Positions 910 through 42,828 of a stretch of DNA of 64,000 nt are shown here, piece after piece; the stretch's first letter is position 1, and every line of letters begins with the position of its first letter. The stretch spans positions 1-64,000 of the IMG/VR virus record IMGVR_UViG_2930337131_000001. One strand, given 5' to 3'. The stretch is from a virus. Taxonomy: Duplodnaviria; Caudoviricetes. The notes under the pieces are model-generated. The model was not told where the DNA came from and ran no database searches. It saw only the letters and a program-made list of their open reading frames with translations. The position numbers and the translations under genes are program-made.

Positions 910-978
910 GGTGTTCCTCGCTTCGTGGTCCGTTGGCGGTGCTCTCCGCCAACACGAGGAATAGTACACCCTGGGCAA
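910..978 (-). promoter_or_regulatory. Class A box plus AGAGCA-hairpin leader (copy 1)
   Basis: TTGCCCAGGGTGTACTATTC...GTTGGCGG-AGAGCA-CCGCCAAC-GGACCACGAA-GCGAGGAACACC-ATG. Confidence 0.8.
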
Positions 979-1044
979 CGTGTGGGGTAGGGGTGCGCGG
1001 AAACTGAAGCGGGGACCGCGCCAGGACGGCCCCCGCTCGCGTGA

Positions 1045-2145
1045 TCAGGCGGCCAGGCCGTACAACGTGACCTGACGGGCGCGGTACTTGCTCGCCGCGG
1101 CCCGGCCGATGTGCCCGGCCATCGCGGTCCCAGCCGGCGGCCGCGCGGCGGGACCCTCGGCCTCCTCGAGCGCCTGGGCGCGCCGGATGATCTCCCGCAT
1201 CGACAACCCCTTCTTGAAGTCGGCCCCGACCACCACTTCGGTCCGGGCGTACGCCGCGGCGAGCTCCGGCACCCGGCGGGCGCCATTCACCAAGTCGCTG
1301 TTGCACCCGAGGACACAGAAAACGCAGCTCAGGCGCCGGTTTCCCCAGTCGTAAGCCGGGTGGTACGGCAGACGCGACCGGGCTATCTCCTGCCACACCT
1401 TCCGGTCGCTCCACGCGTGGATCGGGCGCCAGGTGACGACGTGCCGCTTGCCATTGCTCGCGCCGCGGTTGATCTCCACCTCGGCGAGCTGCGCCCGCGC
1501 GGTGCTCTCCGCGGCCCGCTGGCCGATGCACTCCAGGATCCGCACGGGACGGCCCAGGTCGCCCAGCTCGGCGACCAGCCGCGTGTACAGGGTCCGGATC
1601 GGGCCCCGCTTGGCGTCCGGGGTGCACCAGCGCGCAGAACTCGACGGCCAGGCCGGCGCAACCTTCGCCGTCGTCGGGTCCTCGCCGCGCTCCCGCGCCT
1701 CCTCCTCGGCCTTCGCCTTCAGCTTGCCGTACCGGATCTCGACGCGGTCGAGGAGATCGGCGCCCTTCGCCTGGACCACCTCGAACCGGGGGACCCCGGC
1801 GAGCGCGGCCTGGAGCTCGGCGAGCTCGCGCGTCCCCTCCCACTCGACCCGGCCCAAGTCCGCGTGGACGACGACGACCTTGTGCAGCATCCCCAGGGCC
1901 TTCGCGCGCCGCACGACGTACGACAGCATCGCCTGACTGTCCTTGCCGCCACTGCTCGAGATCACGACCCAGTCCGCGTCACGGATCATCTCGTCCGGCA
2001 CGGTCGTCGACGGCTCGAGGGGCACGGACGCGTGCACCGTCTTCCGCCGCTTCGGCTTCGGCGTGGGCTTCGCCGGCGCTTCGACCACGGCGGCTATCTG
2101 GGGGCTCTGGATGGCGGGGAGGTCGAACAGGGTCGCGGTCTGCAT
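1045..2145 (-). CDS. PAPS-reductase-family (PP-loop adenine nucleotide alpha-hydrolase) protein
   Basis: SSSGGKDS PP-loop, HADLGRVEW, RWCT..KRGP, GQRAAES, RLSCVFC. Confidence 0.85.
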   Translation of the reverse strand: MQTATLFDLPAIQSPQIAAVVEAPAKPTPKPKRRKTVHASVPLEPSTTVPDEMIRDADWVVISSSGGKDSQAMLSYVVRRAKALGMLHKVVVVHADLGRVEWEGTRELAELQAALAGVPRFEVVQAKGADLLDRVEIRYGKLKAKAEEEARERGEDPTTAKVAPAWPSSSARWCTPDAKRGPIRTLYTRLVAELGDLGRPVRILECIGQRAAESTARAQLAEVEINRGASNGKRHVVTWRPIHAWSDRKVWQEIARSRLPYHPAYDWGNRRLSCVFCVLGCNSDLVNGARRVPELAAAYARTEVVVGADFKKGLSMREIIRRAQALEEAEGPAARPPAGTAMAGHIGRAAASKYRARQVTLYGLAA

Positions 2146-2235
2146 GGCGGGCGTCCTCGAGGGCGTGGAGCGGGCGGAGCGGGGCGGCGAGCGGGGACAG
2201 GGGGCGCAGCACGGGCCGCGCCCCCTGGGGGGTCG

Positions 2236-2691
2236 TCAGCGGTACCAGTGGCCGAACTGGTTGCGCGCGGTCACGTACATCTCTCCGTGCGTCTCGGTGG
2301 CCCACGGCGACCGGGGCAGCTCGTACCGGACGACCGCGCCGAACCGGCAGGTGGACACGACGGACGCGGTGACGTCTCCCACGACGGTGATCACGTCGCC
2401 GGTCTGCAGACCCAGGAAGTCCGGCGTGGACACGCTCGCCTCGGTCCTCCACCACGCGCCCCACGCCTTCGGCTCGTGCGGGGACCTCGAGAGCGGCGCG
2501 AACCGGTCGCCCGGCCGGTGGTCGACCCACTCCGCCGTGCCCGCCTTCGGGCTGTACAGGTGTGCACGGTCGTACGCGGCCGGGACGCTCGAGACGGGCA
2601 GCTCTCCCAGGGCGAGCGGCCGACGGACCTTCACGGGGGCCGGGACGGCGGGGGCGGCGGGGGCGACGTCGAACAGGGCGAGGGTCTGCAT
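2236..2691 (-). CDS. hypothetical protein
   Basis: GGAGG RBS then MQTLALFD; GC3-rich frame. Confidence 0.7.
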   Translation of the reverse strand: MQTLALFDVAPAAPAVPAPVKVRRPLALGELPVSSVPAAYDRAHLYSPKAGTAEWVDHRPGDRFAPLSRSPHEPKAWGAWWRTEASVSTPDFLGLQTGDVITVVGDVTASVVSTCRFGAVVRYELPRSPWATETHGEMYVTARNQFGHWYR

Positions 2692-2771
2692 GGGGTCCTC
2701 CAGGACGTGAGGCGGGCGGAGAGGGGGGCCGGGGCGCACCGTGCGGGCTGCGCCCCGACCCGGGGGAGCTG

Positions 2772-3497
2772 CTAGCCGTTGCAGGCGGCGCGGATGGCGG
2801 CGATGAACTTGGCGGCCGCCGCGGTGGCGCTCGCGGGGTCGGCGTCCGGGTCGCACCGGTGGATCACCACCTCGTCCGCGCCGTTGTTGAACCGGATCTG
2901 CCAGGTGCCGCCCCAGTGCTCGAGCGGCTCGTCGACGAACACCCAGTCCTCATGGGCCTCGTAGACGTACGCGACGAGCTGGGGCGTCCCGACGCCGGGG
3001 AAGTCGTCGCCGGTCAGGGGGATGACCAGCCACGAGTTACCGGCGTCGTCGTCGCGGTGGGCGGTGATGCCGTACTCGGTGAGCGCCGCGGTCATCCGCT
3101 CGCGGGCCGTGGGCAGCGGGGGCGTGAGGATGAGCCGCGCGAGACGCTCCCGGCCGGTGTGGTCGCGCTCCCAGACCTCCGCCGCGCGCCAGCGGGCCAC
3201 GCGGAACAGGTGGGCGTACTCGAGGGTGACGCGCAGCCGCTCGTCGCACTGCTGCTCCCAGCCGGCGCTCGGCCGGTGTTCGGGGAGGAGCTCCAGGACC
3301 ACCTCGCCGGTCTCGCGGCGCGGGTCCAGGTAGGCCCCGGCGCTGATGCACTGGTCCCGCTCGTTGAACGCGGCCAGCGGCTGCCCGTCGTGCGTCAGGA
3401 GACGGATGGCGGCCTTCACCTGGGGGACGTCGACGCTCCCGGGGAGGCAGCCGAGGGGGCGCGGCGCGGTCTGGGCGGTGGCGGGCTTCGTGGTCAT
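2772..3497 (-). CDS. hypothetical protein
   Basis: RBS GAGGAG; codon bias; co-oriented run. Confidence 0.7.
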   Translation of the reverse strand: MTTKPATAQTAPRPLGCLPGSVDVPQVKAAIRLLTHDGQPLAAFNERDQCISAGAYLDPRRETGEVVLELLPEHRPSAGWEQQCDERLRVTLEYAHLFRVARWRAAEVWERDHTGRERLARLILTPPLPTARERMTAALTEYGITAHRDDDAGNSWLVIPLTGDDFPGVGTPQLVAYVYEAHEDWVFVDEPLEHWGGTWQIRFNNGADEVVIHRCDPDADPASATAAAAKFIAAIRAACNG

Positions 3498-3583
3498 GGC
3501 GCGGGGTTCTCCTCGGTGAAGTCGTGGCGTGCTGGGGGGGGCGGGGCGCAGCGTCGGGGTGCTGCGCCCCGCCGGGGGTCCGG

Positions 3584-3799
3584 CTAGAGCTGGGGTTCGC
3601 GGACGCGGCCGTCGGAGTACACGAACAGCAGGGGCGCGCCCTGGTCGGTGCGGACGGCGGCGGTGTGGGCGGGGTAGCGCAGGGCGGCCATCTCGGTGTG
3701 CGCGCGGCTGACGATGTCCTCGCGGGCCATGTCGTCGGGCAGCTCGGTCACGGTGCCCTGTCGGACGTCGGACCAGTTGGCGTAAAGGTCGATGCGCAT
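3584..3799 (-). CDS. hypothetical protein
   Basis: RBS GAGGA; 71 aa; flanked by hairpins. Confidence 0.65.
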   Translation of the reverse strand: MRIDLYANWSDVRQGTVTELPDDMAREDIVSRAHTEMAALRYPAHTAAVRTDQGAPLLFVYSDGRVREPQL

Positions 3800-3887
3800 G
3801 GGGTTCCTCTGCTGGGGCCGAGTGAGGCGGGGAGGGTGCCGGGGCGCGGCGCGTACGGTCGCGCCCCGGCGGTAGGGACCGGACCGG

Positions 3888-4304
3888 TCAGACGACGTCG
3901 GTGACGGTGAAGTGGTCGGCCAGGCCGTGACCGGCGTTCTCGGCCTCCATGCGCACGGCGGCGATGTACACGGCCTCGATCACCGCGCGGGTGGTGTGGT
4001 CGACGACGTACCACTTGCCGCCACGGCCGCCCGTCCAGAAGTCGAGCGCGTACCGGGTCGCCAGGGTGACGGGCTCCAGGTACTCGACGACGCGGATGGT
4101 CTGGCCCCACGCGCCCTCGGCGGTGCGGATGCCGGACTCGCGCAGCACCTTGCCGCCCGCGATGTTGAACGCGTACGCGTCGTGCTGCTCGCGGGGGACG
4201 GTGGTGGAGTAGATCCGGTGGTGCATGACCGCGCGCGGCTCGCCGAACTGGGCGGACAGCTCCCACCAGGGCTTCAGGGCGGCCTCTACGGGGGCAACGC
4301 TCAT
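3888..4304 (-). CDS. hypothetical protein
   Basis: ATG at 4304 directly after leader copy 2. Confidence 0.7.
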   Translation of the reverse strand: MSVAPVEAALKPWWELSAQFGEPRAVMHHRIYSTTVPREQHDAYAFNIAGGKVLRESGIRTAEGAWGQTIRVVEYLEPVTLATRYALDFWTGGRGGKWYVVDHTTRAVIEAVYIAAVRMEAENAGHGLADHFTVTDVV

Positions 4305-4396
4305 AGGGGTGTTCCTCCTTCGTGGTCTGGCGGGTGCTCTCCCGCCAACACGCAGAATAGTACACCCTGGGCAATGATGGGTAGGGGTTGCCCAGG
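4305..4396 (-). promoter_or_regulatory. Class A box plus AGAGCA-hairpin leader (copy 2)
   Basis: CCTGGGCAA..TTGCCCAGG inverted pair; GTGTACTATTC; TGGCGGG-AGAGCA-CCCGCCA-GACCACGAA-GGAGG. Confidence 0.8.
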
Positions 4397-4479
4397 AAAA
4401 CCCACGGGGAACGGCCCCGGGATTCCCTCCGGCTGTGCATTCGGGGGAGTCTCGGGGCTCTACCTGCCCGGGGGAGCTG

Positions 4480-5502
4480 CTACGCGGCCGGGGCGAACAG
4501 CCGGCGCTCGGCGTCCACCGACGGCAGCAACACGCCTGCCAGGCTCGCGCTGAACTCCTCCACCTGGGCCCGGGGGATGGCGACGTGCGTGGTCCCGTCG
4601 GGGAACCGCTCCGCCATGGGGCGCGGCTTCGGCCACGGGGCACGGCGGGGCTTCACCGGCATGGGCGGGGGCACCACCAGCGCCGGACGGGCCACCGACA
4701 CGGGGAACAAGCCCTCCTGCCCGTCCTCCTCGGCCCGCACGGCGTCCACCTCGTCGGCCTCCCGCAGCATCGCGGCGTGCGCCTGCTCGAACAGCTCCAC
4801 CCGCTCGAGCTCCAGGCGCTCCGCCTCCACCCGCGCGGCCTCCGCACGGGCCAGGCGCTCCGCCTCGGCGACGACCGCGGGCACCATCCGCGCCCGGAGG
4901 GCCGTCACCGCGCTGTCGTCGGCCCGCTCGAGGTCCACACCGCCCACGGCGGCCCACACCTCCTCTGCCACGGCCCCGTGCTGCTCCCACAGCGGCCGGG
5001 AGCTGCTCCGCGCCTCCACGGGCCGCGTACGGGCCCCCAGACGCTGCGCCAGGGCGTGCAGGACGTCCGCGCGGAACTCCCGGACCCGCACGCGCATCGT
5101 CGACGCGTCCTCGTACTCCAGGAACTCCTCGGCGGCCGCGGAGCGCTTCCACGCGCCGAACACCCGGACCGCCCGGGTCGCCAGGGCCTCCACCTCGTCC
5201 AGGACCCGCTCGAGGGCCACCAGGTACCCGGCGACCGCCCCCGCGTCGCCCTGCACCGTCAGCCGCCGGTCGTCCAGGCCGCCGTACCGCTCATCCGTGC
5301 CGCACATCTCCTTGTAGAACGACCACCGCGGGTTCAGCTTGAAGGGGGTCGCCGCCTCCACCCCGTGAACGTCGGCCAGGGCCCACGCCACGTCGTGGTG
5401 CTGCTTCGCCCGACGCTTCGACGGCGCAGGGAACGCCAGGTCGACGGTAAACCGGCCCGGGGCCGACTCGTACGGGCGGGGGAACTCAACATGCGCACTC
5501 AT
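4480..5502 (-). CDS. hypothetical protein
   Basis: 340 aa, strong GC3 bias, follows leader copy 3. Confidence 0.75.
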   Translation of the reverse strand: MSAHVEFPRPYESAPGRFTVDLAFPAPSKRRAKQHHDVAWALADVHGVEAATPFKLNPRWSFYKEMCGTDERYGGLDDRRLTVQGDAGAVAGYLVALERVLDEVEALATRAVRVFGAWKRSAAAEEFLEYEDASTMRVRVREFRADVLHALAQRLGARTRPVEARSSSRPLWEQHGAVAEEVWAAVGGVDLERADDSAVTALRARMVPAVVAEAERLARAEAARVEAERLELERVELFEQAHAAMLREADEVDAVRAEEDGQEGLFPVSVARPALVVPPPMPVKPRRAPWPKPRPMAERFPDGTTHVAIPRAQVEEFSASLAGVLLPSVDAERRLFAPAA

Positions 5503-5543
5503 GCGCTCTCTCCTTCGTGGTCGTGACGGCTGCTCTCCGCCAC
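5503..5543 (-). promoter_or_regulatory. AGAGCA-hairpin leader (copy 3)
   Basis: GTGGCGG-AGAGCAG-CCGTCAC-GACCACGAA-GGAG. Confidence 0.75.
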
Positions 5544-5589
5544 AGGGGGACCGGACCGCAGGGGGCGGACCGGGGACATGGGGGCCGGC

Positions 5590-5994
5590 TCAGCGGCGAC
5601 GGAGCACACGGGCGAGCCAGCACGGGCGGCGACGTTCACGGGGCGCGCCACGCTCGTACGCCCGGATCATCGCGGCCACCGACTCCGGGTTCGGCGACTG
5701 GTGCCACTGCAGCAGCAGCCACACCCCATCGCGCAGCTCCCCGTACGGCCGGTCAAGGAACAGGGACGCTCCACCGTCCTTGTACCGCCACACCATCCAG
5801 ACGCGGGCTGACTGATACTCCCGCTGGTACACCTCCGACCGGGGAGCGGGCGGCAGACCCAACAGGCGGGCCACCTCGTCGGTGAACGCCACGAACGACG
5901 TGAACGGCTCACTGGCGAGCCGAGACTGAAGCCAGGGGGGAACCATGACGGGCTGAGCCTTCCTGAGAGCGCCCCGCAGCGCCCCGACGCACAC
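5590..5994 (-). CDS. hypothetical protein (start uncertain)
   Basis: Only plausible ORF in the gap; weaker codon bias. Confidence 0.45.
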   Translation of the reverse strand: MCVGALRGALRKAQPVMVPPWLQSRLASEPFTSFVAFTDEVARLLGLPPAPRSEVYQREYQSARVWMVWRYKDGGASLFLDRPYGELRDGVWLLLQWHQSPNPESVAAMIRAYERGAPRERRRPCWLARVLRRR

Positions 5995-6127
5995 GGCGGC
6001 CGGGAAGCGCTGAGAGAGCGGGAGAGCGGGGTTTCTGGACTTTCTGGACCGTCCACACGCGCGCGGGCGTGTAAGGCGGCTCGAGGGGTGCCGCCCGACC
6101 CGATCCGGCCGGGCGGCACCGGGCGGG

Positions 6128-7984
6128 TCAGCCCTGGGAGCGGCGGACGTACTCGACGGGGACGGCGACGCTGAACAGGGCGCCGATCACCTTGCGGGCG
6201 TTGGCGGCGGCGTCCTCGCGGCCGTCGCGCTTGCGGAACTTCGCGACGATCGCCGGGTGCGCGGGGATGAACCCCTGGGGCGTGTCGACCCCGGCCGTGA
6301 TCGTGGCGGTGACGTTCCAGCCGGTGCCGGAGTCGCTCGAGCACTGCACGCGCACCAGGGGCGTGCCGGTCTCGGCGGCGGTCAGCTCCTCGGCCGTGCC
6401 GTCGACGGCGTTGTACGCCACGGCGGCCGTACGGATCTCCTCGGCCGTGCTGGGCAGGTCGGTGCCGTGCATGCGGTGGGCGTGCGGGGCGACGGCCAGG
6501 ATCACCGCGCGGGCCTGCTCGACGGCGGCGCGCGCCTGGTCGTGGGCGGCGTTGCGGGCCCGCAGGTCCCCAGCGGTGCGCAGCGACTCCCACGCGTCCT
6601 CGACGGCGTCCTTCGCGTCGACGATGGCCAGGTGGTGCTCGCTGGGGGCGTGCTTGCCCAGGGTGAGCAGGTGGCGGCCGAGGTCCTCGAGGTCACGGGG
6701 CGCGGTGGCGCACACGGTGGCCTCGTACGCGGCCAGGGCGGCGTACAGGGTCCCGGCGGCCGGGGCGGTGTCCTCGGCGGCGGGGCCGAACACGGTGTCC
6801 AGGGAGGCGCGGGTAACCATCAGGTGCATGTCCGGCGGGAAGGTGCTGCCGGTGGTGCTCTCGTCGTGGCTGCGGAACGTCCAGGTGGGGCGGACCCAGG
6901 GCGCGCCGGGGCCGACGAACGCGGTGACGGCGTCGACGGTGCGGGTCTCGCCCATGTGGGCGTGGATCACGTCCATGCCGGGGCGGAGCATGTCGGCGCG
7001 GACGGGGAGCGCCGAACCGTCGGTGATCTCCTGGAACGTCTCGGCGTAGTACGCGGACAGCTCCGCGTCGATGTCGCCGGTCAGCTCGGCGTCCGTGGGG
7101 CGCTCCAGGGCGGGGAAGAGGTCGCCGGGGGTGGCGGGGCGCAGGTACACGGTCCGGCCGTCGCGGTAGACGATGTGGGCGGTCGACTTGCTCGCGGACA
7201 TGCGCTTGACGGTGCGCTTCACCAGCGGCTGCATCATCGCGGCGTTGATCTCGTCCAGGGCCTGCCGGGTCGGGATGATCTCGGTGGTGCCGTTCTCGGT
7301 GCGGACGTGCTTACGCTCCACGGTGGGCGCGGCGCCGGGGGCCGGCTGCGGGACGTACCGGCGGTTCTCCACGACGATCGCGCGGTCGGCGGGGTCCTGG
7401 CGGAACTGCTGACGCTTGAAGCGCAGGTTCGACACGATCTTGCGGACCTGGGCGGCGGGGATGCCGTCGTGCTTGCGCTCCTCGCCGACGTACACGGCGT
7501 GCGGCGCGTCGACGACGTCGTCGGTGGTGGGCAGCTCCTCCAGCTTCGCGGGGGCCTTGCTCCACAGGCGGATGGACACCGGCTCGACACCGCGCAGGCG
7601 CATCGGGGACAGGCGGTTGGACAGGCGCGCGGAGATCGCGTCGGTGAGTTCCTTGTCCCAGCCGCGCGGGTCGCGGTCGCCGCCCTCGACGATCTCGTCG
7701 CGCAGGGCGTGCACCTGGTCGTCGCTCATGTGGTGGAGCTGCTCGCGGATGGCCCAGTACCGCTCATCGCGGGTGAAGATGACGCGGACGCGCTCCGACT
7801 CGGCGTCCCGGCGGATGATGCGCCGGACGGTCTCCTTGTTGGCCTTGCCCTGCTCCTTGTCGGCGTCGCGGCTCATCACGGCGTCCACCAGGTCGTGCGT
7901 GACCACGCGGCCGTTGTCCAGGCGGGCGGAGATGAAGACCTGCAGCGCCATGGCTTCGGCGCGGTCGGTGGCGGTCAGCGTCAT
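6128..7984 (-). CDS. hypothetical multidomain protein
   Basis: 618 aa, strong codon bias, follows leader copy 4. Confidence 0.8.
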   Translation of the reverse strand: MTLTATDRAEAMALQVFISARLDNGRVVTHDLVDAVMSRDADKEQGKANKETVRRIIRRDAESERVRVIFTRDERYWAIREQLHHMSDDQVHALRDEIVEGGDRDPRGWDKELTDAISARLSNRLSPMRLRGVEPVSIRLWSKAPAKLEELPTTDDVVDAPHAVYVGEERKHDGIPAAQVRKIVSNLRFKRQQFRQDPADRAIVVENRRYVPQPAPGAAPTVERKHVRTENGTTEIIPTRQALDEINAAMMQPLVKRTVKRMSASKSTAHIVYRDGRTVYLRPATPGDLFPALERPTDAELTGDIDAELSAYYAETFQEITDGSALPVRADMLRPGMDVIHAHMGETRTVDAVTAFVGPGAPWVRPTWTFRSHDESTTGSTFPPDMHLMVTRASLDTVFGPAAEDTAPAAGTLYAALAAYEATVCATAPRDLEDLGRHLLTLGKHAPSEHHLAIVDAKDAVEDAWESLRTAGDLRARNAAHDQARAAVEQARAVILAVAPHAHRMHGTDLPSTAEEIRTAAVAYNAVDGTAEELTAAETGTPLVRVQCSSDSGTGWNVTATITAGVDTPQGFIPAHPAIVAKFRKRDGREDAAANARKVIGALFSVAVPVEYVRRSQG

Positions 7985-8091
7985 GGGGTGCTCCCTCGTT
8001 CGTGGTCCGGCCGGGGATGCTCGCCCCGGCCCCGCCTTAGTGGCGTCCGCTGACCGTACCGCCCTCCCCTCGAATACGCAACCCTGGGCAA
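7985..8091 (-). promoter_or_regulatory. Variant class A box plus hairpin leader (copy 4)
   Basis: TTGCCCAGGGTTGCGTATTC; GGCCGGGG-CGAGCAT-CCCCGGCC-GGACCACGAA. Confidence 0.7.
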
Positions 8092-8172
8092 TGAAAGGGT
8101 GCGGAGCGCTCGAGGAATCGCGGCGCTCACCAGGGAGTTTCAGGGAATCTCGACGCAGGGGGTTGCGAGAGA

Positions 8173-8259
8173 TTGCCTCGGGTGTACTGTTCTCCTCAGC
8201 GGTTCACACCGCAGCCCCGGAGAGCACCGGGGCGAGACCACGAACACGAGGAGCACCCG
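8173..8259 (+). promoter_or_regulatory. Variant class A box plus hairpin leader (copy 5), divergent from copy 4
   Basis: TTGCCTCGGGTGTACTGTTC; GCCCCGG-AGAGCA-CCGGGGC-GAGACCACGAA. Confidence 0.75.
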
Positions 8260-8601
8260 ATGATCACTCTCGCCAAGGCCACCGACACCCCCCGCGCCAC
8301 CGTCTCCCTGGAGAAGGACCCCACCGCCATCGTCTGGTTCCTGGCCGTCGTGACCGACATGGCCACCCCCGCCGCCCGGGTCCACGAACTGGTCGTCACC
8401 TTCGAGGAGTCCTACGACTCCCAGGTGGAAGCGGCGCACCGCCTGGCCGAGACGATCGACGGCGCCACTGTCGAGATCCTGTTCGCCAACGACCGGTCCG
8501 AGGCGTACGGCGTCGCCCGCACCGGCCAGGACTTCGACGGGATGCTCGACCTGTGGCTCGCCCAGCAGCCCCCGGCCGTGGCCGTCGAGCACGTCGGCTG
8601 A
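8260..8601 (+). CDS. hypothetical protein
   Basis: ATG after GAGGAG of leader. Confidence 0.7.
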   Translation: MITLAKATDTPRATVSLEKDPTAIVWFLAVVTDMATPAARVHELVVTFEESYDSQVEAAHRLAETIDGATVEILFANDRSEAYGVARTGQDFDGMLDLWLAQQPPAVAVEHVG

Positions 8602-8703
8602 CCCCGAGACCCGCACCGCCCGCCAACCCCCCTGGCGGGCGGTGCGCCCCGCCCCCGGGGCCGGCTGTCTGCCGGAACGGGCGCAGGGCGCACCGCCCAC
8701 ACC

Positions 8704-8743
8704 GTCCCGGAGAGCACCGGGGCCCGGACCACGAAGGAACACC
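8704..8743 (+). promoter_or_regulatory. AGAGCA-hairpin leader (copy 6)
   Basis: GTCCCGG-AGAGCA-CCGGGGC-CCGGACCACGAA-GGAACACC-ATG. Confidence 0.75.
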
Positions 8744-9310
8744 ATGCGTCGCATTCGCCTCTCGGCCGTCCTCACCCGCCGCCCCCGCCCGGTCGTGATC
8801 GCGCTCGCCGGTCTCACCGCCACCGTCGCCGCCCTGGTCTCCGTGTACGGCAGCACGTACGACGGAGCCAACGCGGGCGCCACCGTCGGCCCGGCCGGTT
8901 GCTTCGTCGGCATCGAGTGGCGCGGCGAGCCGGGCGTGTACGGCTCCTGCACCGGCGCCGACCCGGACAGCCGGGAGGGCGCGACCGCGTCCGGCCCCGC
9001 CTTCCACCTCGACTTCCCGTGGGCCGACAACGTCGACGCGGACACCGCCACGCCTGAGCCGGCCCCCGCCCCGGCCGCCGACGACGTCGTCACCGCGTAC
9101 AACGCCGGGTGGAAGGCAGGCGTCGACGCCCTCGGCCACGGCACGCACGCCACGCCCCCGGCCGCGTCCGGCGACGCGAACGACGCGGGCACCGTCGCGT
9201 GGGCAGACGGCTGGATCGACGGCCAGGCCGACGCCATGGGCGACGACGACCGAGACGGCACCGTCGAGCCGGGCGAGTCCGGGTGGGACGCAAGCACGGC
9301 CCGCCACTGA
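8744..9310 (+). CDS. putative secreted or membrane-anchored protein
   Basis: Basic N-terminus plus hydrophobic segment; acidic C-terminal DDDRDG. Confidence 0.65.
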   Translation: MRRIRLSAVLTRRPRPVVIALAGLTATVAALVSVYGSTYDGANAGATVGPAGCFVGIEWRGEPGVYGSCTGADPDSREGATASGPAFHLDFPWADNVDADTATPEPAPAPAADDVVTAYNAGWKAGVDALGHGTHATPPAASGDANDAGTVAWADGWIDGQADAMGDDDRDGTVEPGESGWDASTARH

Positions 9311-9379
9311 CCCTCGAGCACCCCGCCGGGGCGCAGCCCGCGCCCCGGCCCCCGACTCCCCAGGAAGGCACCGCACGCC

Positions 9380-9682
9380 ATGCCCAGCGCCCCCCTCACC
9401 CCCGCCCAGACCGCGCAGCTCGGCGACGCCGTCGGCCGGATCGCCGCGTACGCCGCCCGCTCCCTCGTCGACACGTACCCGCACCTGGACCTCGAGCAGC
9501 TCGTCGAGACGTTCACGCGCCCCGTGGCCGTCGAGGGCACCGCACGCCGCTACCTGGCCGCGCTGGACTGCGGCGCCACCCCGGCCGTCGCCGCCGGGCG
9601 CGCCGGGGTCGCGCTCATCAACGCGTGGGCCGAGGCGCGCCTGGCCGCCGCCCAGGCCGCCCAGGCCGCCCGCACCGCCTGA
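9380..9682 (+). CDS. hypothetical protein
   Basis: 100 aa, RBS, codon bias. Confidence 0.65.
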   Translation: MPSAPLTPAQTAQLGDAVGRIAAYAARSLVDTYPHLDLEQLVETFTRPVAVEGTARRYLAALDCGATPAVAAGRAGVALINAWAEARLAAAQAAQAARTA

Positions 9683-9753
9683 CACACCCGACCACTCCCG
9701 CCGGGGCGCAGCACCGCGCCCCGGCCCCGCACAGCTCCGAGAGGATCCACACC

Positions 9754-10200
9754 ATGGCCCGGAAGATGAGCGCCACCGAGCGAGCCGCCCGCGATGTCGT
9801 GAACAAGTACGTCCGTGACGGCCTGATGGAGCGCGGGCAGGCCAACCGCGCGATCCGTGACGGCCTGGCCATCGCCGAGACGACCGTGCGCACGGAGTAC
9901 GTGAAGAACGGGTGGGGCTCCGCCCTGTACTACGGGCAGAAGGTCGCCGCGGCCCGCGAGGAGTTCGACGCCGCCCGGCCCGGCTCGATCGCCCAGCGCG
10001 TGAAGGGCGCGCGCCTGCTGGCCACGGAGATATACGCGGCCGTGTTCGCCGTCGTGGAGGCCGAGGAGGGCCCCCGCGAGGGCGCCGAGCGGCTCACCCC
10101 CGGCCAGGCCGAGGAGGTCATGGCCACCGTGCGCGACACCGCCCGGGAGCTGCGCGAGGAAGCCGCCGCGCCCGCCCGCCGGTTCACCGCCGCCGCCTGA
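9754..10200 (+). CDS. hypothetical protein
   Basis: RBS GAGGA, MARKMSATER. Confidence 0.7.
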   Translation: MARKMSATERAARDVVNKYVRDGLMERGQANRAIRDGLAIAETTVRTEYVKNGWGSALYYGQKVAAAREEFDAARPGSIAQRVKGARLLATEIYAAVFAVVEAEEGPREGAERLTPGQAEEVMATVRDTARELREEAAAPARRFTAAA

Positions 10201-10615: not shown

Positions 10616-10684
10616 TTGCCCAGGGTGTACTATTCAGGGGTTGGCGGAGAGCACCGCCGACGACCACGAAGCGAGGAGCACCCC
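10616..10684 (+). promoter_or_regulatory. Class A box plus hairpin leader (copy 7)
   Basis: TTGCCCAGGGTGTACTATTC; GTTGGCGG-AGAGCA-CCGCCGAC-GACCACGAA-GCGAGGAG. Confidence 0.8.
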
Positions 10685-11062
10685 ATGGCTACTGCCCGCA
10701 CCAACTTCCGCGACCGCGTCCGTGCCAACCGCGCCGCCTCCCGCGCCCGCCGCGCCACGGCTCGCGCCGCCCGCGCCGTCCGCACCTCCGCCCGCTCCAT
10801 CACCACGCACGTCCTCGCCACCGGCGCCGACGCCGCCACCGTGAAGGGCGTCGTCAAGGCGCTGCAGGGCGTCGCCAAGACCGCCCGCGCCAACGGCCTC
10901 AAGGGCAAGCGGGTCCGCATCCGCCGCACCGCCCAGGGCTTCAAGCGTCACGCCGTCACCGCCTACCGGTACACCCGCGCCCAGGTCGCCGAGATCGCCG
11001 CCGCCTACAAGCCGCGCAAGGCCGAGTACAAGGCCATCCGCGCCGCGCTGATCGCCGCCTGA
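10685..11062 (+). CDS. highly basic Arg/Lys/Ala-rich putative nucleic-acid-binding protein
   Basis: 125 aa, very few acidic residues. Confidence 0.7.
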   Translation: MATARTNFRDRVRANRAASRARRATARAARAVRTSARSITTHVLATGADAATVKGVVKALQGVAKTARANGLKGKRVRIRRTAQGFKRHAVTAYRYTRAQVAEIAAAYKPRKAEYKAIRAALIAA

Positions 11063-11652: not shown

Positions 11653-11703
11653 CCAGCGCTCGCCGGGCGGGCCTGTCACAGCACACGCCCGCCCGGCGTT
11701 CCC

Positions 11704-11750
11704 CCCGACGAGAGCACGTCGGGCCGACCACACACCGGAGGAACACCCCC
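11704..11750 (+). promoter_or_regulatory. AGAGCA-hairpin leader (copy 8)
   Basis: CCCGACG-AGAGCA-CGTCGGG-CCGACCAC..GGAGGAACACC. Confidence 0.7.
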
Positions 11751-11975
11751 GTGGACGACACCGCCCAGGACCCGGCCGCCGCCTCGGCCGCCAAGCTCGC
11801 CGAGGGCGCCCGCCCCGCATGGGAGCTGTACGCCGCCGCGCACAGGGGCGTGACCATGGCCGACCTGATCAGCGACCTACTGCACCTCGCCGACCGCCTG
11901 CCCGACGAGCAGGACAAGGGCGCTGACGAGATCCTCGCCCGCGCCCAGCGCGACTACGACGCCGAGCGTCCGTAG
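11751..11975 (+). CDS. hypothetical protein
   Basis: GTG after leader; DLISDLLH helix. Confidence 0.65.
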   Translation: MDDTAQDPAAASAAKLAEGARPAWELYAAAHRGVTMADLISDLLHLADRLPDEQDKGADEILARAQRDYDAERP

Positions 11976-12052
11976 AGCGGTCGCGCCCCGGGGCCCGGAC
12001 GTACGAGCCGCCCCGGGGCGCGACGCAAGCCCCACCCGCAGGACCCAATGCC

Positions 12053-12105
12053 CCGGCCGGAGAGCACCGCGCCGGACCAGACCACGAACGAAGGAACACC
12101 GCGCC
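12053..12105 (+). promoter_or_regulatory. AGAGCA-hairpin leader (copy 9)
   Basis: CCGGCCGG-AGAGCA-CCGCGCCGG-ACCAGACCACGAA-CGAAGGAACACC. Confidence 0.7.
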
Positions 12106-13017
12106 GTGACCATGCCCGCAGTCGCCCACGCGACCACCGCCGCCCCGCTCGCCGCCCTCCTGCCCACCCGCATGGGCAACACCTGGCGGATTGGACCGGC
12201 GCCGTACGGCATCCGCAACAACGTCGCCACCTCCCGACTGACGGACGGCCGCCGCGCGCTGATCGTCGTGGAGGAGGGCAACCGCGTCGAGCTGTACGCC
12301 GACCGCCCGGACACCTTCCCCATCACCCCGGACGCCGTCGTCGACGGCACGGACCCTTCCGCCGTCGCCGCGCTGGCCGCCCGCGCGCTGCGCTGGATCC
12401 TCCCCACGCTGGACGCCGAACGGATGCGGGCCGACGCCGCCGGGTGCAAGGACCCCGCCGACCAGTGGCGGCGCTTCCTGCGGTTGAAGGGCACCCACCT
12501 GATCGACGTCGGCTTCAGCCTCATCGACCACGGCGCGCACCCCGTGCCGCGAGAGATCCCCGGCCAGATGGCGCGGAAGGCCGACCACATGGACGAGTGG
12601 GGGCACCCGCTGGCCATGGAGCGTCCGGACGGGCCCGGACTGGCGTGGACGGCCGCGAGCGGCGCCGAGTGGGGCGTGTGGTCGCACGGGTGCGGCCCGG
12701 CCTACACCCTGACCTACGAGGGCCCCATGCGCGGCCTATACGGGGCGCTGCCGGTCCTGCTGCCCCCGCTGGGCACCCACACCCCCACGGACGCCGGTAG
12801 CGCGTTCACGCGGCACCTGACGGACCGCTTCCCGCAGCTCCAGCCCGTCGACGCCGACGAGGTCGAGTTCGGCGGCTACCAGGACCTGCACGGCTGGATC
12901 GCGCTTCCCTCCCGCGCGGAGCTGGGCGACGTCGTCGACGACGACACCCGCGTCTGCGCCCAGGTCGGCCCGGTCGGCGCCGACTTCCTGCTCGCCGCCG
13001 CCGCGCACCTGATCTGA
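12106..13017 (+). CDS. hypothetical protein, paralog of next gene
   Basis: Shared blocks with 13088..13927. Confidence 0.75.
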   Translation: MTMPAVAHATTAAPLAALLPTRMGNTWRIGPAPYGIRNNVATSRLTDGRRALIVVEEGNRVELYADRPDTFPITPDAVVDGTDPSAVAALAARALRWILPTLDAERMRADAAGCKDPADQWRRFLRLKGTHLIDVGFSLIDHGAHPVPREIPGQMARKADHMDEWGHPLAMERPDGPGLAWTAASGAEWGVWSHGCGPAYTLTYEGPMRGLYGALPVLLPPLGTHTPTDAGSAFTRHLTDRFPQLQPVDADEVEFGGYQDLHGWIALPSRAELGDVVDDDTRVCAQVGPVGADFLLAAAAHLI

Positions 13018-15618: not shown

Positions 15619-15692
15619 TTGCCCAGGGTGTACTATTCGGCGTGTTGGTGGAGAGCGCCGCCGACGCGGACCACGAAGAAGAGGAACACCAG
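15619..15692 (+). promoter_or_regulatory. Class A box plus hairpin leader (copy 10)
   Basis: TTGCCCAGGGTGTACTATTC; GTTGGTGG-AGAGCG-CCGCCGAC-GCGGACCACGAA-GAAGAGGA. Confidence 0.8.
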
Positions 15693-17027
15693 ATGCGGAC
15701 CCTGCCCCCAGCGGTCGCCACCGCCGTGCACGTCGCCACCCTCGCCCGCAAGGCAGGGAAGCCGATCCCGCCGAAGGTGTACGCCGTCCTGGAGGCCGCC
15801 GCCAACCCGTGGCCCGCCGAGTGGCTGCTCGCCCCGCTCCCCGGCGACCCGATCCGCGTGGTGGAGCTGTTCGCCGGTCCCGGCGGCTGGTCCGAGGGCA
15901 TCGCCGCCGTCCTCGGCGTGGCCGTCGACTCGTGCGGAGTGGACATCTCCCCGGACGCCTGCGCTACCGCCCGCGCCGCCGGACACCGCCGCATCTGCGC
16001 CGACATCACCACCCTGGACCCCGAGCACATCGCACTGCGCTACACCGCCGCCGTCATCATCAGCCCGCCGTGCCCCACGTTCTCCCCGGCGGGCAAGCTG
16101 TCCGGTCTCGAGGCCCGCAACATCGACATCCTGTGCACCGCCATCGCCTACGTGGGCGAGGCCGCCGGATTCCTGCCCGTCGACGAAATCTTCGACTTCC
16201 ACGACGAGGACGACTACGACGAGGACGGGAACTGCCCGTGCGAGCCGGGCGAGGGTTGCATGGCGCCCTTCGCCCCGCGCTCTGGTGCCACCTGGGATGA
16301 GGTCCGCGAGATGGCTGCCGAGGTCAGCGACCCCCGCATTGCCCTGATGCTCGAGGTCGTCATCTGGCCGCTCGCGCTGCAGGCCGCCGGGGCACCGATC
16401 CGCTGGATGGCCATGGAGCAGTCGCACAACCTGCCCGAGGACATCCTCGACTACCTGTCCGGCGAGTTCCGGTGTGCCGAGTGGTTCTACACCAGCCACG
16501 ACATCATGGAGGCTGCGGACTACGGCCTGCCCTCCCGCCGCAAGCGCGTGTACATGGTCGCCACCCGCACCTACACGCCCGCGATCACACGCCGCATCCG
16601 CCCGCTCCCCGCGACGTCCATGGCGCAGGCCCTCGGCTGGCAGCCCGGCGAGCGCGTCAACACGCGCGGCACCCGCCCCATCGACCCGAAGACCGGCCGC
16701 CCCAAGGGCGGGAACTGTTTCTCCGCCGACGGCCCGTCCTGGTGCCTCACCGGCAAGTCCCGCACCTGGAAGCGAGAGAGCGACGGCCTGCGCCTCACCG
16801 AGTCGGAGGCTGGTCTCCTCGTCGGGTTCCGCCGCTCCTACCCGTGGCAGGGAAGCCGCACGAGCGCCTTCCAACAGGCCGCCGACGTCGTCTCCCCGGT
16901 CATGGCCGCCATCGTCCTGTCCGGCATGTTCGGCGCCCTCGGCGAGGCCCTGGTGCGCGACTACCTCGCCCAGCTCTACGAGATGGACGACATGCTCGCC
17001 CAGGACGACTACGACCTAGTCACCTAG
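15693..17027 (+). CDS. orphan DNA cytosine-C5 methyltransferase
   Basis: Motif I ELFAGPGG, motif IV SPPCPTFS, MEQ (ENV-like), YGLPSRRKR, RLTESEAGLLVGF, QQAADVVSP. Confidence 0.9.
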   Translation: MRTLPPAVATAVHVATLARKAGKPIPPKVYAVLEAAANPWPAEWLLAPLPGDPIRVVELFAGPGGWSEGIAAVLGVAVDSCGVDISPDACATARAAGHRRICADITTLDPEHIALRYTAAVIISPPCPTFSPAGKLSGLEARNIDILCTAIAYVGEAAGFLPVDEIFDFHDEDDYDEDGNCPCEPGEGCMAPFAPRSGATWDEVREMAAEVSDPRIALMLEVVIWPLALQAAGAPIRWMAMEQSHNLPEDILDYLSGEFRCAEWFYTSHDIMEAADYGLPSRRKRVYMVATRTYTPAITRRIRPLPATSMAQALGWQPGERVNTRGTRPIDPKTGRPKGGNCFSADGPSWCLTGKSRTWKRESDGLRLTESEAGLLVGFRRSYPWQGSRTSAFQQAADVVSPVMAAIVLSGMFGALGEALVRDYLAQLYEMDDMLAQDDYDLVT

Positions 17028-23428: not shown

Positions 23429-23448
23429 TTTACCTGGGTGTACTATTC
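23429..23448 (+). promoter_or_regulatory. Class A promoter box without hairpin leader
   Basis: TTTACCTGGGTGTACTATTC. Confidence 0.6.
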
Positions 23449-35071: not shown

Positions 35072-35128
35072 TCACCTCGCCAGGAGGGACGCGGAAAGGC
35101 GGACAACGGCTGCGGTGCGCGAGGGCAT
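35072..35128 (-). CDS. 18-aa leader peptide MPSRTAAVVRLSASLLAR upstream of traB
   Basis: Directly follows leader copy 11 RBS; stop lies 6 bp before traB GTG. Confidence 0.45.
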   Translation of the reverse strand: MPSRTAAVVRLSASLLAR

Positions 35129-35172
35129 CGGGGTGTTCCTTCGTTCGTGGTCTCGGCGGTGCTCTCCGCCGT
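35129..35172 (-). promoter_or_regulatory. AGAGCA-hairpin leader (copy 11)
   Basis: CGGCGG-AGAGCA-CCGCCG-AGACCACGAA-CGAAGGAACACC. Confidence 0.75.
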
Positions 35173-35217
35173 GGGGCCTGGCCATGACGCCAGATGTTCG
35201 GTTGTCGCAGGTGCGGG

Positions 35218-40630: not shown

Positions 40631-40646
40631 ACGGGCAACCAAGGGA

Positions 40647-41561
40647 TCAGCTCTCCAGGGCAGCGGTACCGGCGTCGGTCAGCCGCCAACGCCACCCCAT
40701 GCCGTTGGCTTGCGTCCTGCTGAACTGTTCGTCGACCACCACCCACCCCTTCGCCTCGAGCTTCTTCACCGCGGCGCTGACCCTCCGGCCCAGGTGTCCC
40801 CATGCCGAGGTGCTGCGCTGGCTGGTGTCGAAGACGATGGGCTGGCTCGTGCGGCCCGGCCGCAGGGTGAACACGACGCCCGACTTGATGAGCTCGAGCA
40901 GCGCCTTCTCCGCCGCGGTGGGCGGCGCCGGGGCGTCGGCGGGGCGGACCTTCCCCATGTAGTCCAGGCACCGGTGGCAGTTGGCGGGGGCGTCGACGGG
41001 CTCGCTCAGGTGCAGCGGGTTCGATCGGCCGGGGGTCTCGCACAGGCCGCGGTCGGCCGGGTGCTTGCGGGACCGGCCGGAGACCAGGTCGTCCTTGGGC
41101 GCGGCGTGCCGGAGCGATCCGCCCACGCCCGAGTGCCTGGTGTTCTCCCGCACGGTCATCTCGACGCCGGCAGCGGCGAGTGCCTCGTCCCACCTGCGTT
41201 TTTCGCGCTCTCGGCGCTCCTTGGCCTTCTGGGCGATCAGCTCCTCGTGTTCCTTGCGGCGCTGTCGCGCCTCGACGACGGACGGCGGCAGGGGCGGGTC
41301 CAGGGCCATCTGGTCGGCGAGGACGAGCATCCAGCCGTCCACGCTGGAGCTGCGGTCGATACCGGGGAAGGAGTGCCCCAGTACGGCGGTGCACCAGTCG
41401 TTGCCGCGCCGGTCGGCGACCTCGTACATGCTCTTGAGGTCCTCGGGACCCAACGGTCCGCGGCTCTTGCGCTCGGCGTCCGTCCGCACCATCTCGTACG
41501 TGTCGTACGCGGGATCGGGCACGGGGCGGGGAAGCAGAGCGGTCACGACGTGTCGTCGCAT
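40647..41561 (-). CDS. hypothetical protein with Cys motif and C-terminal winged helix
   Basis: NCHRC; VKKLEAKGWV..WRLTDAG. Confidence 0.7.
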   Translation of the reverse strand: MRRHVVTALLPRPVPDPAYDTYEMVRTDAERKSRGPLGPEDLKSMYEVADRRGNDWCTAVLGHSFPGIDRSSSVDGWMLVLADQMALDPPLPPSVVEARQRRKEHEELIAQKAKERREREKRRWDEALAAAGVEMTVRENTRHSGVGGSLRHAAPKDDLVSGRSRKHPADRGLCETPGRSNPLHLSEPVDAPANCHRCLDYMGKVRPADAPAPPTAAEKALLELIKSGVVFTLRPGRTSQPIVFDTSQRSTSAWGHLGRRVSAAVKKLEAKGWVVVDEQFSRTQANGMGWRWRLTDAGTAALES

Positions 41562-41606
41562 CGGGGGTGTTCCTCTCTTCGGGTGAACAGCGGTGCTCTC
41601 CGCTGT
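41562..41606 (-). promoter_or_regulatory. AGAGCA-hairpin leader (copy 12)
   Basis: ACAGCGG-AGAGCA-CCGCTGT-TCACCCGAA-GAGAGGAACACC. Confidence 0.7.
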
Positions 41607-41646
41607 GTGGCACCGCGGTGGGCGCCGAGACCTGCGTACGGTGAGG

Positions 41647-42231
41647 TCAGGAACGTCGCGCGGGCTCTGCCCGGATGATCGCAAGGGACTGGACGAGCAG
41701 CTCGGCGTTGGTCCGCGGGTCCGAGCGCCAACGCAGCGCGTATCCGCCGGAGATGGTCGGGCCTTCGATCTCGTGCAGTGTCGGGTGGCGGTCGCGTGCC
41801 CGCTCCTCCCACCCGTCGGCGGGCAGTGTCACGCCGCCGTGGCCGTTGTCCGGGCAGGTGATGAACACCGTGGTCTCGGCAATTTCCGCGGAGAAGCCGC
41901 CCGCGTACGCGAACCGCGCGCGCGACGCTGGAGCCTGACGTGCAGGGCGCCGACCGCGCGGCCGGTAGGGGCCGCGGCCGCCGCGGGGCACAGGGTGCTG
42001 TTCCATCCACTTCCGGCCGGAGTCGGTCAGCTTCACGGGGGCGGAGTCGTCTCCCCCGTCGGTCACGTACCCGGCGCTGGTCAGCGGGTAGAACGAGCTC
42101 TGATTGACGACGTAGTCGGTGCCGGTGAGTCGGTAGCGGGCGCGGGGCGCCACGGCGAACTGGGCACCGGTGCTGCCGGCCTCCGCGATGGTGCGGAGGA
42201 GGGTTTCGACAGCAGGCGTGAAGTCGGGCAT
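41647..42231 (-). CDS. hypothetical protein, N-terminal winged-helix-like
   Basis: GAGGAG RBS; VKLTDSG. Confidence 0.65.
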   Translation of the reverse strand: MPDFTPAVETLLRTIAEAGSTGAQFAVAPRARYRLTGTDYVVNQSSFYPLTSAGYVTDGGDDSAPVKLTDSGRKWMEQHPVPRGGRGPYRPRGRRPARQAPASRARFAYAGGFSAEIAETTVFITCPDNGHGGVTLPADGWEERARDRHPTLHEIEGPTISGGYALRWRSDPRTNAELLVQSLAIIRAEPARRS

Positions 42232-42307
42232 GTGGTTCTGCTCCTCGACGGGGCTGAGCGGAGAATCGTTCTGAGCGAAGAATCGAACGCGTCGAACAGC
42301 CGGGTTG

Positions 42308-42595
42308 TTACGCCTTGGCCGGAGCCTTCACCGGCAGGATGGCGTCGATCGAGGTGTCCCAGGCGCGGCCGAACCACCGTGCGGCGTTGCCGAGTCGGCC
42401 GGGGAACATCTGCGCCACCAGGACGCCGGCGGCGATCGTCAGCGTGAGGGCCAGGTGCGCGAGGAACCAGCCCACGACTGCGCCGACAACTTCCGCCAGG
42501 AAGAGGAGAGTTGCCAGGGTAGGCGGGACGATGGCCGGGTGCGCGACGGCCAGGAGGCCGAACGCCCAGGCGAGAAGCTGCAGCTTGGCGCGCAT
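42308..42595 (-). CDS. small membrane protein
   Basis: Mostly hydrophobic 95 aa. Confidence 0.6.
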   Translation of the reverse strand: MRAKLQLLAWAFGLLAVAHPAIVPPTLATLLFLAEVVGAVVGWFLAHLALTLTIAAGVLVAQMFPGRLGNAARWFGRAWDTSIDAILPVKAPAKA

Positions 42596-42596
42596 C

Positions 42597-42785
42597 TCAA
42601 CCCTCCTGCTGCTGGCCGTAGAAGCCGCTGGAGGGGTTGGTGGTGTCGGAGAGGTGGACTCGCCACCCGTCGGTGGTCTTCACCAGCGGGTCCTCTTCGG
42701 TACCCGGGTGACCGTCTGCCGCGCAGATGTTCCGCAGACCGTCGTGGTCGCGCTTCTGCTGGCCCGTGCTGATCCAGCCCGCCAT
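42597..42785 (-). CDS. small hypothetical protein
   Basis: Follows leader copy 13. Confidence 0.65.
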   Translation of the reverse strand: MAGWISTGQQKRDHDGLRNICAADGHPGTEEDPLVKTTDGWRVHLSDTTNPSSGFYGQQQEG

Positions 42786-42828
42786 GGGGGAGCTCCTCAG
42801 TTCGTGGTCTGGGCGGTGCTCTCCGCCC
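42786..42828 (-). promoter_or_regulatory. AGAGCA-hairpin leader (copy 13)
   Basis: GGGCGG-AGAGCA-CCGCCC-AGACCACGAA-CTGAGGAG. Confidence 0.75.

Follow-up and report, generated by a model that had tools for sequence, protein, structure and literature searches.

Among the repeated motifs described in actinobacteriophages, start-associated sequences (SAS) and their extended form (extended SAS, ESAS) come closest to the element reported here. They were described in 2011 from cluster K mycobacteriophages, and a similar motif is present in cluster EF Microbacterium phages (PMC3203893, PMC7302621); in papers from 2024 and 2025 their role is still called unknown or unverified (PMC11373665, PMC12699233). 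The ESAS of cluster K are 17-bp imperfect inverted repeats for which the original authors found no support for RNA pairing (PMC3203893), and these repeats were later read as a SigA-type promoter plus operator. Here we describe a repeated hairpin leader in a Caudoviricetes genome, IMG/VR record IMGVR_UViG_2930337131_000001 (128,053 bp), whose first 64 kb (positions 1–64,000) are referred to below as the window. The motif is genuine and far from random, a structured leader belonging to a family of Streptomyces phages, and it looks like a phage-specific gene-expression signal. Tentatively, and from sequence comparison, we would read it as an mRNA leader operator that a phage-specific factor uses to control translation or mRNA fate, a reading that leaves considerable room for others.

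Several better-understood systems also bear on this element. In bacteriophage lambda the nut site joins boxA to the boxB hairpin, whose G-N-R-N-A pentaloop is bound by the arginine-rich N protein, and HIV has a counterpart in TAR-Tat. The hairpin operator of T4 gp43, the RegA sites and the coat-protein hairpin of RNA phages are translational operators. In N4-type hairpin promoters the hairpin forms on the template strand and is used by a phage single-subunit RNA polymerase, and 5'-terminal hairpins are known to stabilise bacterial mRNAs.

Anatomy of the Leader and Its Relation to SAS

Read on the sense strand, each leader runs through a 6–8 bp stem, the loop AGAGCA, the returning stem, a spacer of 0–6 nt and the block (G/A)ACCACGAA; 2–5 variable nt then lead to AGGA, a purine, CACC, a further 2–6 nt and an ATG or GTG. 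The conserved linear sequence 3' of the hairpin, before the Shine-Dalgarno AGGA, is GACCACGAA. A first-pass annotation of the window had listed 13 copies, all of which are present on the strands it gave and within a few bases of its coordinates (Table 1); the stem pairs it quoted are correct on the sequence, and each copy does lie on the sense strand ahead of a start codon, ending at ATG or GTG. Thirteen is the count for the window, but the whole genome holds 18 copies by covariance model (E ≤ 0.01), five of them beyond the window (97486+, 100819-, 112113+, 127420- and 127881-), and all 18 have a sense-strand start codon at their end. The covariance model, R1, was made from the 13 window copies and scored with filters off; it gives these copies 38.7–67.7 bits, and the next window match, within a coding region at 1498–1513, reaches 16.9 bits. 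The window contains 10 occurrences of the pattern GAGCA-N5-16-ACCACGAA, where 0.02 would be expected (100 dinucleotide shuffles, none of which attains 10). Hairpin and block go together, as 18 of the 19 intergenic hairpins that bear the loop have the linear block 0–6 nt downstream and intergenic GACCACGAA is never found without the hairpin. One exact GACCACGAA without a hairpin overlaps the start codon of gene 2772–3497, which begins ATGACCACGAAG (window 3487–3497, minus strand); its presence there is probably coincidental.

Both motifs have an asymmetric conserved block over the ribosome-binding site, a few nucleotides before the start and in a single orientation (sense in 18/18 copies here). 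They are alike in copy number (11–19 per genome there, 18 here), in preceding non-structural genes only, in their absence from the host genome (here, four host genomes, best 150 candidates each) and in having a promoter-containing upstream element before a subset of copies. ATG is favoured in both (80/93 there; 15/18 here, against 49/103 of the other rough gene calls in this genome). The consensus is GGGATAGGAGCCC there and GACCACGAA..AGGARCACC here, a difference greater than the ≤2 mismatches allowed for SAS (PMC12699233). Unlike the ESAS repeats, that of the leader is a 6–8 bp covarying RNA hairpin with an invariant loop and without TAnnnT, and the promoter-like box is a separate upstream element, with the hairpin between box and block. 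On these sequence features the leader is best regarded as a structured variant of actinobacteriophage SAS: the same kind of motif, but a separate family.

The first-pass annotation had also held that the motif has no name. This stands with respect to Rfam 15, in which no family reaches its gathering score anywhere in the window and which gives, at E ≤ 10 over 7900–12200 (seven copies), only two unrelated weak matches away from the copies; it does not stand for the 3' block, which belongs to a described kind in SAS. Searches of open-access text (main articles only) turned up nothing on this motif or on Streptomyces phage Gilgamesh, the relative used below, and met the 9-mer only in unrelated primers. 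As far as such text shows, the motif is new to the literature.

Covariation and Blockwise Conservation

In a MAFFT alignment of the 13 window copies, 84.8% of stem cells are paired, compared with 61.4% in shuffles; seven of the eight pairs show changes on both sides, the covariation score is reached by 0/500 shuffles, and sliding the partner leaves 35–56% paired. A larger alignment was made of 105 copies (E ≤ 0.001; 380 kb searched) from this genome, four Streptomyces contigs, two viral contigs and Gilgamesh, a cultivable phage (129,136 bp; host S. lividans) that is ~81% identical to the window's first 20 kb across 55% of the query. Here 90.0% of stem cells are paired (60.5 ± 1.4% in shuffles) and 209 cells have changed on both sides (79.5 ± 8.1 in shuffles), neither value being reached by any of 500 shuffles and a slid 3' partner giving 31–58%; fitting to the model biases this alignment towards pairing, and the 13-copy MAFFT alignment agrees with it. 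Between this phage and Gilgamesh, orthologous copies show compensatory changes, such as A-U to G-C at 41560 and 11702. Among the 797 stem cells of the 105 copies, G-U pairs number 45 and A-C pairs 14. Because a template-strand hairpin would give the reverse, this excess indicates that the sense strand folds. The stem is selected for pairing, as the first-pass annotation had supposed, and the fold lies on the sense strand.

These figures tell against a reading at the level of DNA, under which the repeats would be an operator or stoperator for a repressor of double-stranded DNA, or an N4-like single-stranded hairpin promoter for a phage RNA polymerase. In stem length the hairpins are close to N4 promoter hairpins, an open reading frame (ORF) of 4001 aa and no known family follows the portal gene, and GACCACGAA is asymmetric and oriented with transcription, as are stoperators in PMC3203893. 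A dimeric DNA binder would, however, keep the sequence of the arms, which covary here, and the conserved blocks run on through the Shine-Dalgarno sequence to within 2–6 nt of the start codon. The N4-type promoter was rejected on the sense-strand excess of G-U over A-C and on the giant ORF, which has no similarity to polymerases in Pfam, PHROGs or PDB sequences. Action at the DNA level would thus seem very improbable.

Conservation is distributed by block. Across 13 orthologous pairs with Gilgamesh, the loop changes by 0.049 per column, GACCACGAA by 0.060, AGGA by 0.058, rCACC by 0.077 and the stems by 0.11, against 0.60–0.73 for the spacers between blocks, and loop positions A12, G13 and C14 are identical in 105/105 copies. 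These rates, with the invariant loop positions, point to selection on sequence in the loop and the two linear blocks, and on pairing in the stem. The near-invariance claimed earlier for loop and downstream block is borne out as selection on sequence, but with exceptions: copies 7982, 5496 and 15643 have variant loops and copies 11702 and 41560 variant blocks (Table 1). In minimum-energy folds of the 18 leaders the loop-bearing hairpin is kept in 17 (two shortened), copy 7982 folding differently. A proposed pairing of upstream CCTCG with the Shine-Dalgarno CGAGG does form in the minimum-energy fold of copy 904, but is not general (1/18).

Several known classes of RNA element were considered and put aside. 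Recognition of a ligand, which the first-pass annotation had allowed for, is unlikely, as a 6–8 bp stem, a 6-nt loop and a U-free tail give no pocket or pseudoknot; in particular, pairing with the loop would require U, which the tail lacks, so no loop-to-tail pseudoknot can form. PreQ1-I and other small riboswitches were rejected, no Rfam match being found. An intrinsic terminator was rejected as well: the tail is T-free, none of the four terminator-like sites in 1–17500 coincides with a copy, and five copies stand directly 3' of a promoter-like box. So was an enhancer pairing with 16S rRNA, since the Streptomyces 16S gene contains no exact or one-mismatch complement of GACCACGAA and the best block–16S duplex (−13.0 kcal/mol) is matched by 21/300 shuffled 9-mers. 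In an acceptor mimic cut by RNase P, CCA stands 1 nt from the stem; a tRNA-like mimic of this type (hairpin plus ACCA) was set aside because CCA is here 2–5 nt from a short stem.

Distribution and Tagged Genes

The motif follows the phage elements and, within them, the non-structural genes. There is no copy between 42,832 and 97,485 of the genome, a stretch that, judged by its synteny with Gilgamesh, holds integrase, helix-turn-helix, giant ORF and virion genes, and Gilgamesh has none between 16,939 and 71,420, its virion-gene region. Gilgamesh carries 17 copies at E ≤ 0.01 and 19 at E ≤ 0.05, and the two phages place their copies at orthologous gene starts. Five related ~125-kb elements have 9–18 copies each by covariance model, and in a circular 129,653-bp relative deposited as a plasmid 11/11 matches abut an independently annotated start of a coding sequence. 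Four Streptomyces genomes (7.4–8.8 Mb) gave 16, 14, 9 and 14 matches, in each case all on one ~125-kb contig, among the best 150 of ~15,000–18,000 first-look candidates that were scored per genome. Within that limit, the confinement of host-genome matches to the ~125-kb contig is indicative of a phage-encoded reader. A loose pattern, AGAGCA-N6-14-GACCACGAA, returned at least 118 single, apparently chance matches in a first scan of the collection and was replaced by a stricter one, whose single matches in other phyla (20–36 bits only) were treated as chance.

The tagged genes include those for DpdA, a C5 methylase, an AAA-like ATPase (weak match) and a basic 125-aa protein, and an ORF before an FtsK/SpoIIIE-like gene. 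The assignments of the first-pass annotation to the DpdA, C5 methylase and basic-protein genes all hold. What it had called the traB leader precedes an 18-codon upstream ORF, MPSRTAAVVRLSASLLAR (window 35072–35128, minus strand), located between the leader and the FtsK/SpoIIIE-like gene (33059–35065; PF01580). Gilgamesh shares the first codons of this ORF, which is unannotated there and may be a coupling or leader peptide. The 188-aa product of 8744–9310 has an N-terminus that looks like a signal or membrane anchor. In Gilgamesh, the leader motif of gene 137 (DNA methylase; motif at 18735–18782) ends ~45 nt downstream of the annotated start, and for this reason the true start is probably the ATG with which the motif ends, like that of the window copy at 15693.

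A Promoter-like Box Upstream of the Hairpin

A 20-bp box, TTGCCCAGGGTGTACTATTC, occurs about ten times in the genome and is each time soon followed by a hairpin; its form in Gilgamesh is TTTCCnnTGGTGTACTATTC. Given its −10-like hexamer TACTAT and its spacing to the hairpin, the box is probably a phage-specific promoter or operator, although a sigma-70 consensus scan of 1–17500 called no promoter, box included. A hairpin with the GAGCA loop starts 4–8 nt past TACTAT in five places. One of these is a hairpin-only copy at genome 105728–105748, which consists of box and hairpin ~110 nt from the start codon, without GACCACGAA, and has a Gilgamesh orthologue in whose stem U-G has become C-G. Copy 42783 has a −10-like TAGAGT 10 nt before its stem. 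Four other copies begin no more than 6 nt past the strong GC hairpin at the end of the upstream gene (upstream folds −36 to −48 kcal/mol). Copy 11702 starts 5 nt past a strong terminator-like hairpin (upstream fold −40.6 kcal/mol). In copies 8212 and 112113 the box is separated from the AGAGCA hairpin by another, different small hairpin. The motif is modular, with the promoter-like box first, then the hairpin, then the start-associated block.

A passive expression cassette that no specific factor reads could also have this arrangement. In it, the hairpin would guard or define the 5' end of the mRNA (as a start site or by processing), the A/C-rich, U-free block would keep the ribosome-binding site open in a 72% G+C genome, and the copies would be alike through common descent and selection for efficient translation. 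The 4–8 nt spacing past TACTAT in the five box-linked copies, which would make their hairpins 5'-terminal, fits such a cassette, as do the boxes at 23429 and 100899, which are likewise directly followed by hairpins but with different loops. So does the preference for ATG, and so does the predicted accessibility of the ribosome-binding site, which is slightly higher in motif genes than in others (0.50 vs 0.42 over −16..+3, p = 0.004; p = 0.13 for the Shine-Dalgarno region alone). That gain is small, however, and a cap needs neither an invariant ACCAC nor a loop with three positions invariant in 105/105 copies, while the spacers change by 0.6–0.7 per column. The AGAGCA hairpin is not merely a 5'-end cap, because at 8212 and 112113 the other hairpin is already nearer the box. 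A cassette without a reader is therefore, in our judgement, unlikely, though it deserves to be kept in mind.

The Basic 125-aa Protein and a Related Block

The top-scoring copy precedes a very basic protein of 125 aa (10685–11062, plus strand; pI 12, 25% K+R) with an Arg/Ala-rich N-terminal helix. Its structural model (mean predicted local distance difference test score, pLDDT, 86.7) has the Arg-rich helix at residues 2–34. The family is restricted to Streptomyces and Kitasatospora elements; there is no Pfam or PDB fold match (E ≤ 0.001), and the protein atlas gives only unnamed actinobacterial clusters. One source names a homologue 'ribosomal protein L20', a designation that could not be supported. 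The protein, whose counterpart in Gilgamesh is the product of gene 129, is a speculative candidate for a trans-acting factor. Close homologues (L193–L197) co-occur with the motif, but 10 distant loci with homologues lack the AGAGCA motif apart from one weak match (E = 0.021), and the co-occurrence is weak for that reason.

A protein of this type invites comparison with lambda nut and TAR. In all of them a small promoter-proximal hairpin has its loop conserved rather than its stem, and a conserved linear element lies adjacent; as in lambda, a protein with a (predicted) Arg-rich helix is encoded, here beside the top-scoring copy. The leader might then be a loading site for processive antitermination or elongation control, the nascent hairpin binding an Arg-rich phage protein, for which the 10685–11062 product is the candidate, or RNA polymerase, so that the GC-rich terminator-like hairpins are read through. 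Six hairpins do start 4–10 nt past a −10-like TAnnnT, five of them following the box, with the conserved hairpin-only copy included; strong GC hairpins follow many genes in the same arms; and the core GAGCA fits the letters G-N-R-N-A of boxB, but in a loop of 6–7 nt. Nut sites would not be expected to number eighteen and to keep a fixed, short distance to Shine-Dalgarno and start codon, and four copies come directly after, not before, a strong hairpin. The linear block is 3' of the hairpin, the reverse of the usual order, with no boxA-like element 5' of it, and no member of the N, Q or Nus families was matched among the phage proteins scanned (part of the proteome). Taken with the distant basic-protein homologues that lack the motif, this makes antitermination rather unlikely.

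The distant homologues (38–45% identity) reside in viral contigs of 87–99 kb. In five of these loci (L198, L200, L204, L205 and L206) a hairpin-less sequence, GACCA[AC]GGAA-N1-3-GAGGAA, stands before starts in 55 unique copies, and the basic-protein homologues of these contigs are 41–45% identical; the five other distant loci have neither GACCA block nor hairpin. The core GACCA.G.AA, directly before GAGGA and a start codon, is common to these contigs and our phage. The AGAGCA hairpin is absent there, however, the first block itself resembles a Shine-Dalgarno sequence (AAGGAA), and copies per kilobase are far more numerous. Since the distant contigs keep the block without the hairpin, the GACCA-type block appears older and more widespread than the hairpin. 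The same five contigs, which have no close isolated phage in the phage collection, also contain recurrent AT-rich palindromic promoter-like sites, for example ATGATTTAGTTAATC.

A bolder combination of these elements would take the hairpin as a boxB/TAR-like tag, the Arg-rich 125-aa protein as its autoregulated reader and the GACCA block as a further part of a private code that couples terminator read-through to preferential translation. We hold this to be quite improbable. If true, it would provide the first mechanistic handle on actinobacteriophage SAS, unexplained since 2011.

A Proposed Leader Operator Read on the Transcript

The leader operator read at the RNA level is favoured over these alternatives because of the invariant loop on a freely varying stem, the invariant ACCAC, the short fixed distance to the Shine-Dalgarno sequence and the restriction to the phage elements. 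It would be a composite cis-acting leader of two coupled RNA modules, specific to the ~125-kb Gilgamesh-like Streptomyces phages (phage-plasmids). The first module would be the 6–8 bp hairpin, its stem free to vary as long as it pairs and its loop core GAGCA invariant; the second, directly 3', would be (G/A)ACCACGAA, 2–5 nt, AGGA, R, CACC, 2–6 nt and the start codon. A phage-specific factor, most likely a protein, may bind the transcript at its loop and at the single-stranded ACCAC block, and its binding would set translation initiation and thereby mRNA fate. The putative regulon comprises ~18 non-structural genes, for DNA modification, FtsK-like transfer, an AAA ATPase and many products of no known family. 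We infer the translational level of action, the existence of a trans factor and the identity of that factor. In T4 and the RNA phages, too, a hairpin and a single-stranded stretch lie by the Shine-Dalgarno sequence and several early genes may be under one repressor; unlike those operators, the leader has no homologous protein and no sequence in common with them, and its repressor is hypothetical.

Several observations weigh against the leader operator, in addition to the fitted 105-copy alignment, the limited host scan and the accessibility values given above. The hairpin-only copy ~110 nt from its start codon implies that the hairpin can function at a distance from the ribosome-binding site. 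In distant relatives a similar block is kept but has no hairpin, so that the two modules may serve separate functions. No recognisable RNA-binding protein was found, and outside DpdA, the methylase, FtsK and the weak AAA match the motif-linked proteins have no Pfam or PHROG function.

The covarying hairpin and invariant loop offer precise and cheap test mutations in Gilgamesh. Across the ~125–130 kb Streptomyces phage and phage-plasmid elements the motif stands before genes for anti-restriction DNA modification and one for transfer, and for that reason it may explain the scheduling of accessory genes. It is also a possible compact expression part for high-G+C hosts.

Table 1. Leader copies in the window and occurrences of the 20-bp box. 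Copies are named in the text by their first coordinate; positions are those of the window unless marked as genome positions.
Feature	Position	Strand	R1 (bits)	Context
Leader copy	904..954	-	61.0	Before DpdA gene (16-909; Pfam DpdA 2.8e-78); hairpin TGTTGGCGG/CCGCCAACG, loop AGAGCA, GACCACGAA, GAGGA, ACACC, ATG
Leader copy	4302..4349	-	57.4	Before 138-aa gene (3888-4304)
Leader copy	5496..5545	-	38.7	Before 340-aa gene (4480-5502); 7-nt loop AGAGCAG
Leader copy	7982..8032	-	48.7	Before 618-aa gene (6128-7984); loop CGAGCAT
Leader copy	8212..8262	+	50.6	Before 113-aa gene (8260-8601)
Leader copy	8702..8749	+	48.9	Before 188-aa gene (8744-9310)
Leader copy (top score)	10639..10688	+	67.7	Before basic 125-aa protein gene (10685-11062)
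Leader copy	11702..11753	+	52.1	Before 74-aa gene (11751-11975); 3' block GACCACACA
Leader copy	12052..12106	+	42.2	Before 303-aa gene (12106-13017, GTG start)
Leader copy	15643..15695	+	52.4	Before C5 DNA methylase gene (15693-17027; PF00145); loop AGAGCG
Leader copy	35126..35174	-	66.1	Before 18-codon upstream ORF (35072-35128)
Leader copy	41560..41608	-	50.2	Before 304-aa gene (40647-41561); 3' block TCACCCGAA
Leader copy	42783..42831	-	59.7	Before 62-aa gene (42597-42785)
Box	959..978	-		Hairpin of copy 904 begins 6 nt past TACTAT
Box, exact	4355..4374	-		Ahead of copy 4302
Box, degenerate (4 mismatches)	8072..8091	-		~40 nt ahead of copy 7982
Box variant (3 mismatches, TACTGT)	8173..8192	+		Then another small hairpin, then copy 8212
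Box, exact	10616..10635	+		Ahead of copy 10639
Box, exact	15619..15638	+		Ahead of copy 15643
Box	23429..23448	+		Directly followed by hairpin with different loop
Box	genome 100899-100918	+		Directly followed by hairpin with different loop
Box	genome 105754-105773	-		Hairpin-only copy 105728-105748

The Phage and Its Relatives

The two ends of the record have only 95 bases in common (1–95 and 127959–128053). An overlap this short indicates a closed circular assembly in which coordinate 1 is arbitrary, and the 'direct terminal repeat' of the record was rejected as a true long terminal repeat, 95 bases being what a circular assembly predicts. G+C within the window is 68–76%. The annotation of Gilgamesh lists a tape measure protein, two tyrosine integrases, ParA, ParB, an FtsK-like translocase and a sigma factor, and ~125–130 kb contigs akin to it are found in many Streptomyces assemblies. 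The kinship with Gilgamesh, these related contigs and the relative filed as a plasmid together suggest a temperate phage from a family resembling phage-plasmids. The view of the element as a plain plasmid was set aside in favour of a phage or phage-plasmid.

The 4001-codon ORF begins 3' of the portal-like gene, at window 57555–64000, and runs on to genome 69560. In gene order it matches Gilgamesh gene 48, a hypothetical gene of 13.9 kb (~4,620 codons) that is also 3' of the portal gene; the 4001-codon ORF itself has no Pfam, PHROG or PDB sequence match. A gene for an ECF-type sigma factor (Sigma70_r2, r4) lies at genome 111230–111934 on the minus strand, divergent from the motif-bearing gene at 112167. 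The DpdA gene adjoins a gene with a PAPS-reductase domain (window 16–2145, minus strand), with the C5 cytosine methylase nearby (15693–17027, plus strand), and the phage DNA is probably modified with a 7-deazaguanine derivative and 5-methylcytosine. Long GC-rich hairpins without a U tract follow almost every gene in window 9300–15000 and genome 124000–128000 (for example GCCGGGCGGGC...GCCCGCCCGGC at 11663–11697), so that the genes of these arms are set apart by structured spacers of 70–100 nt.

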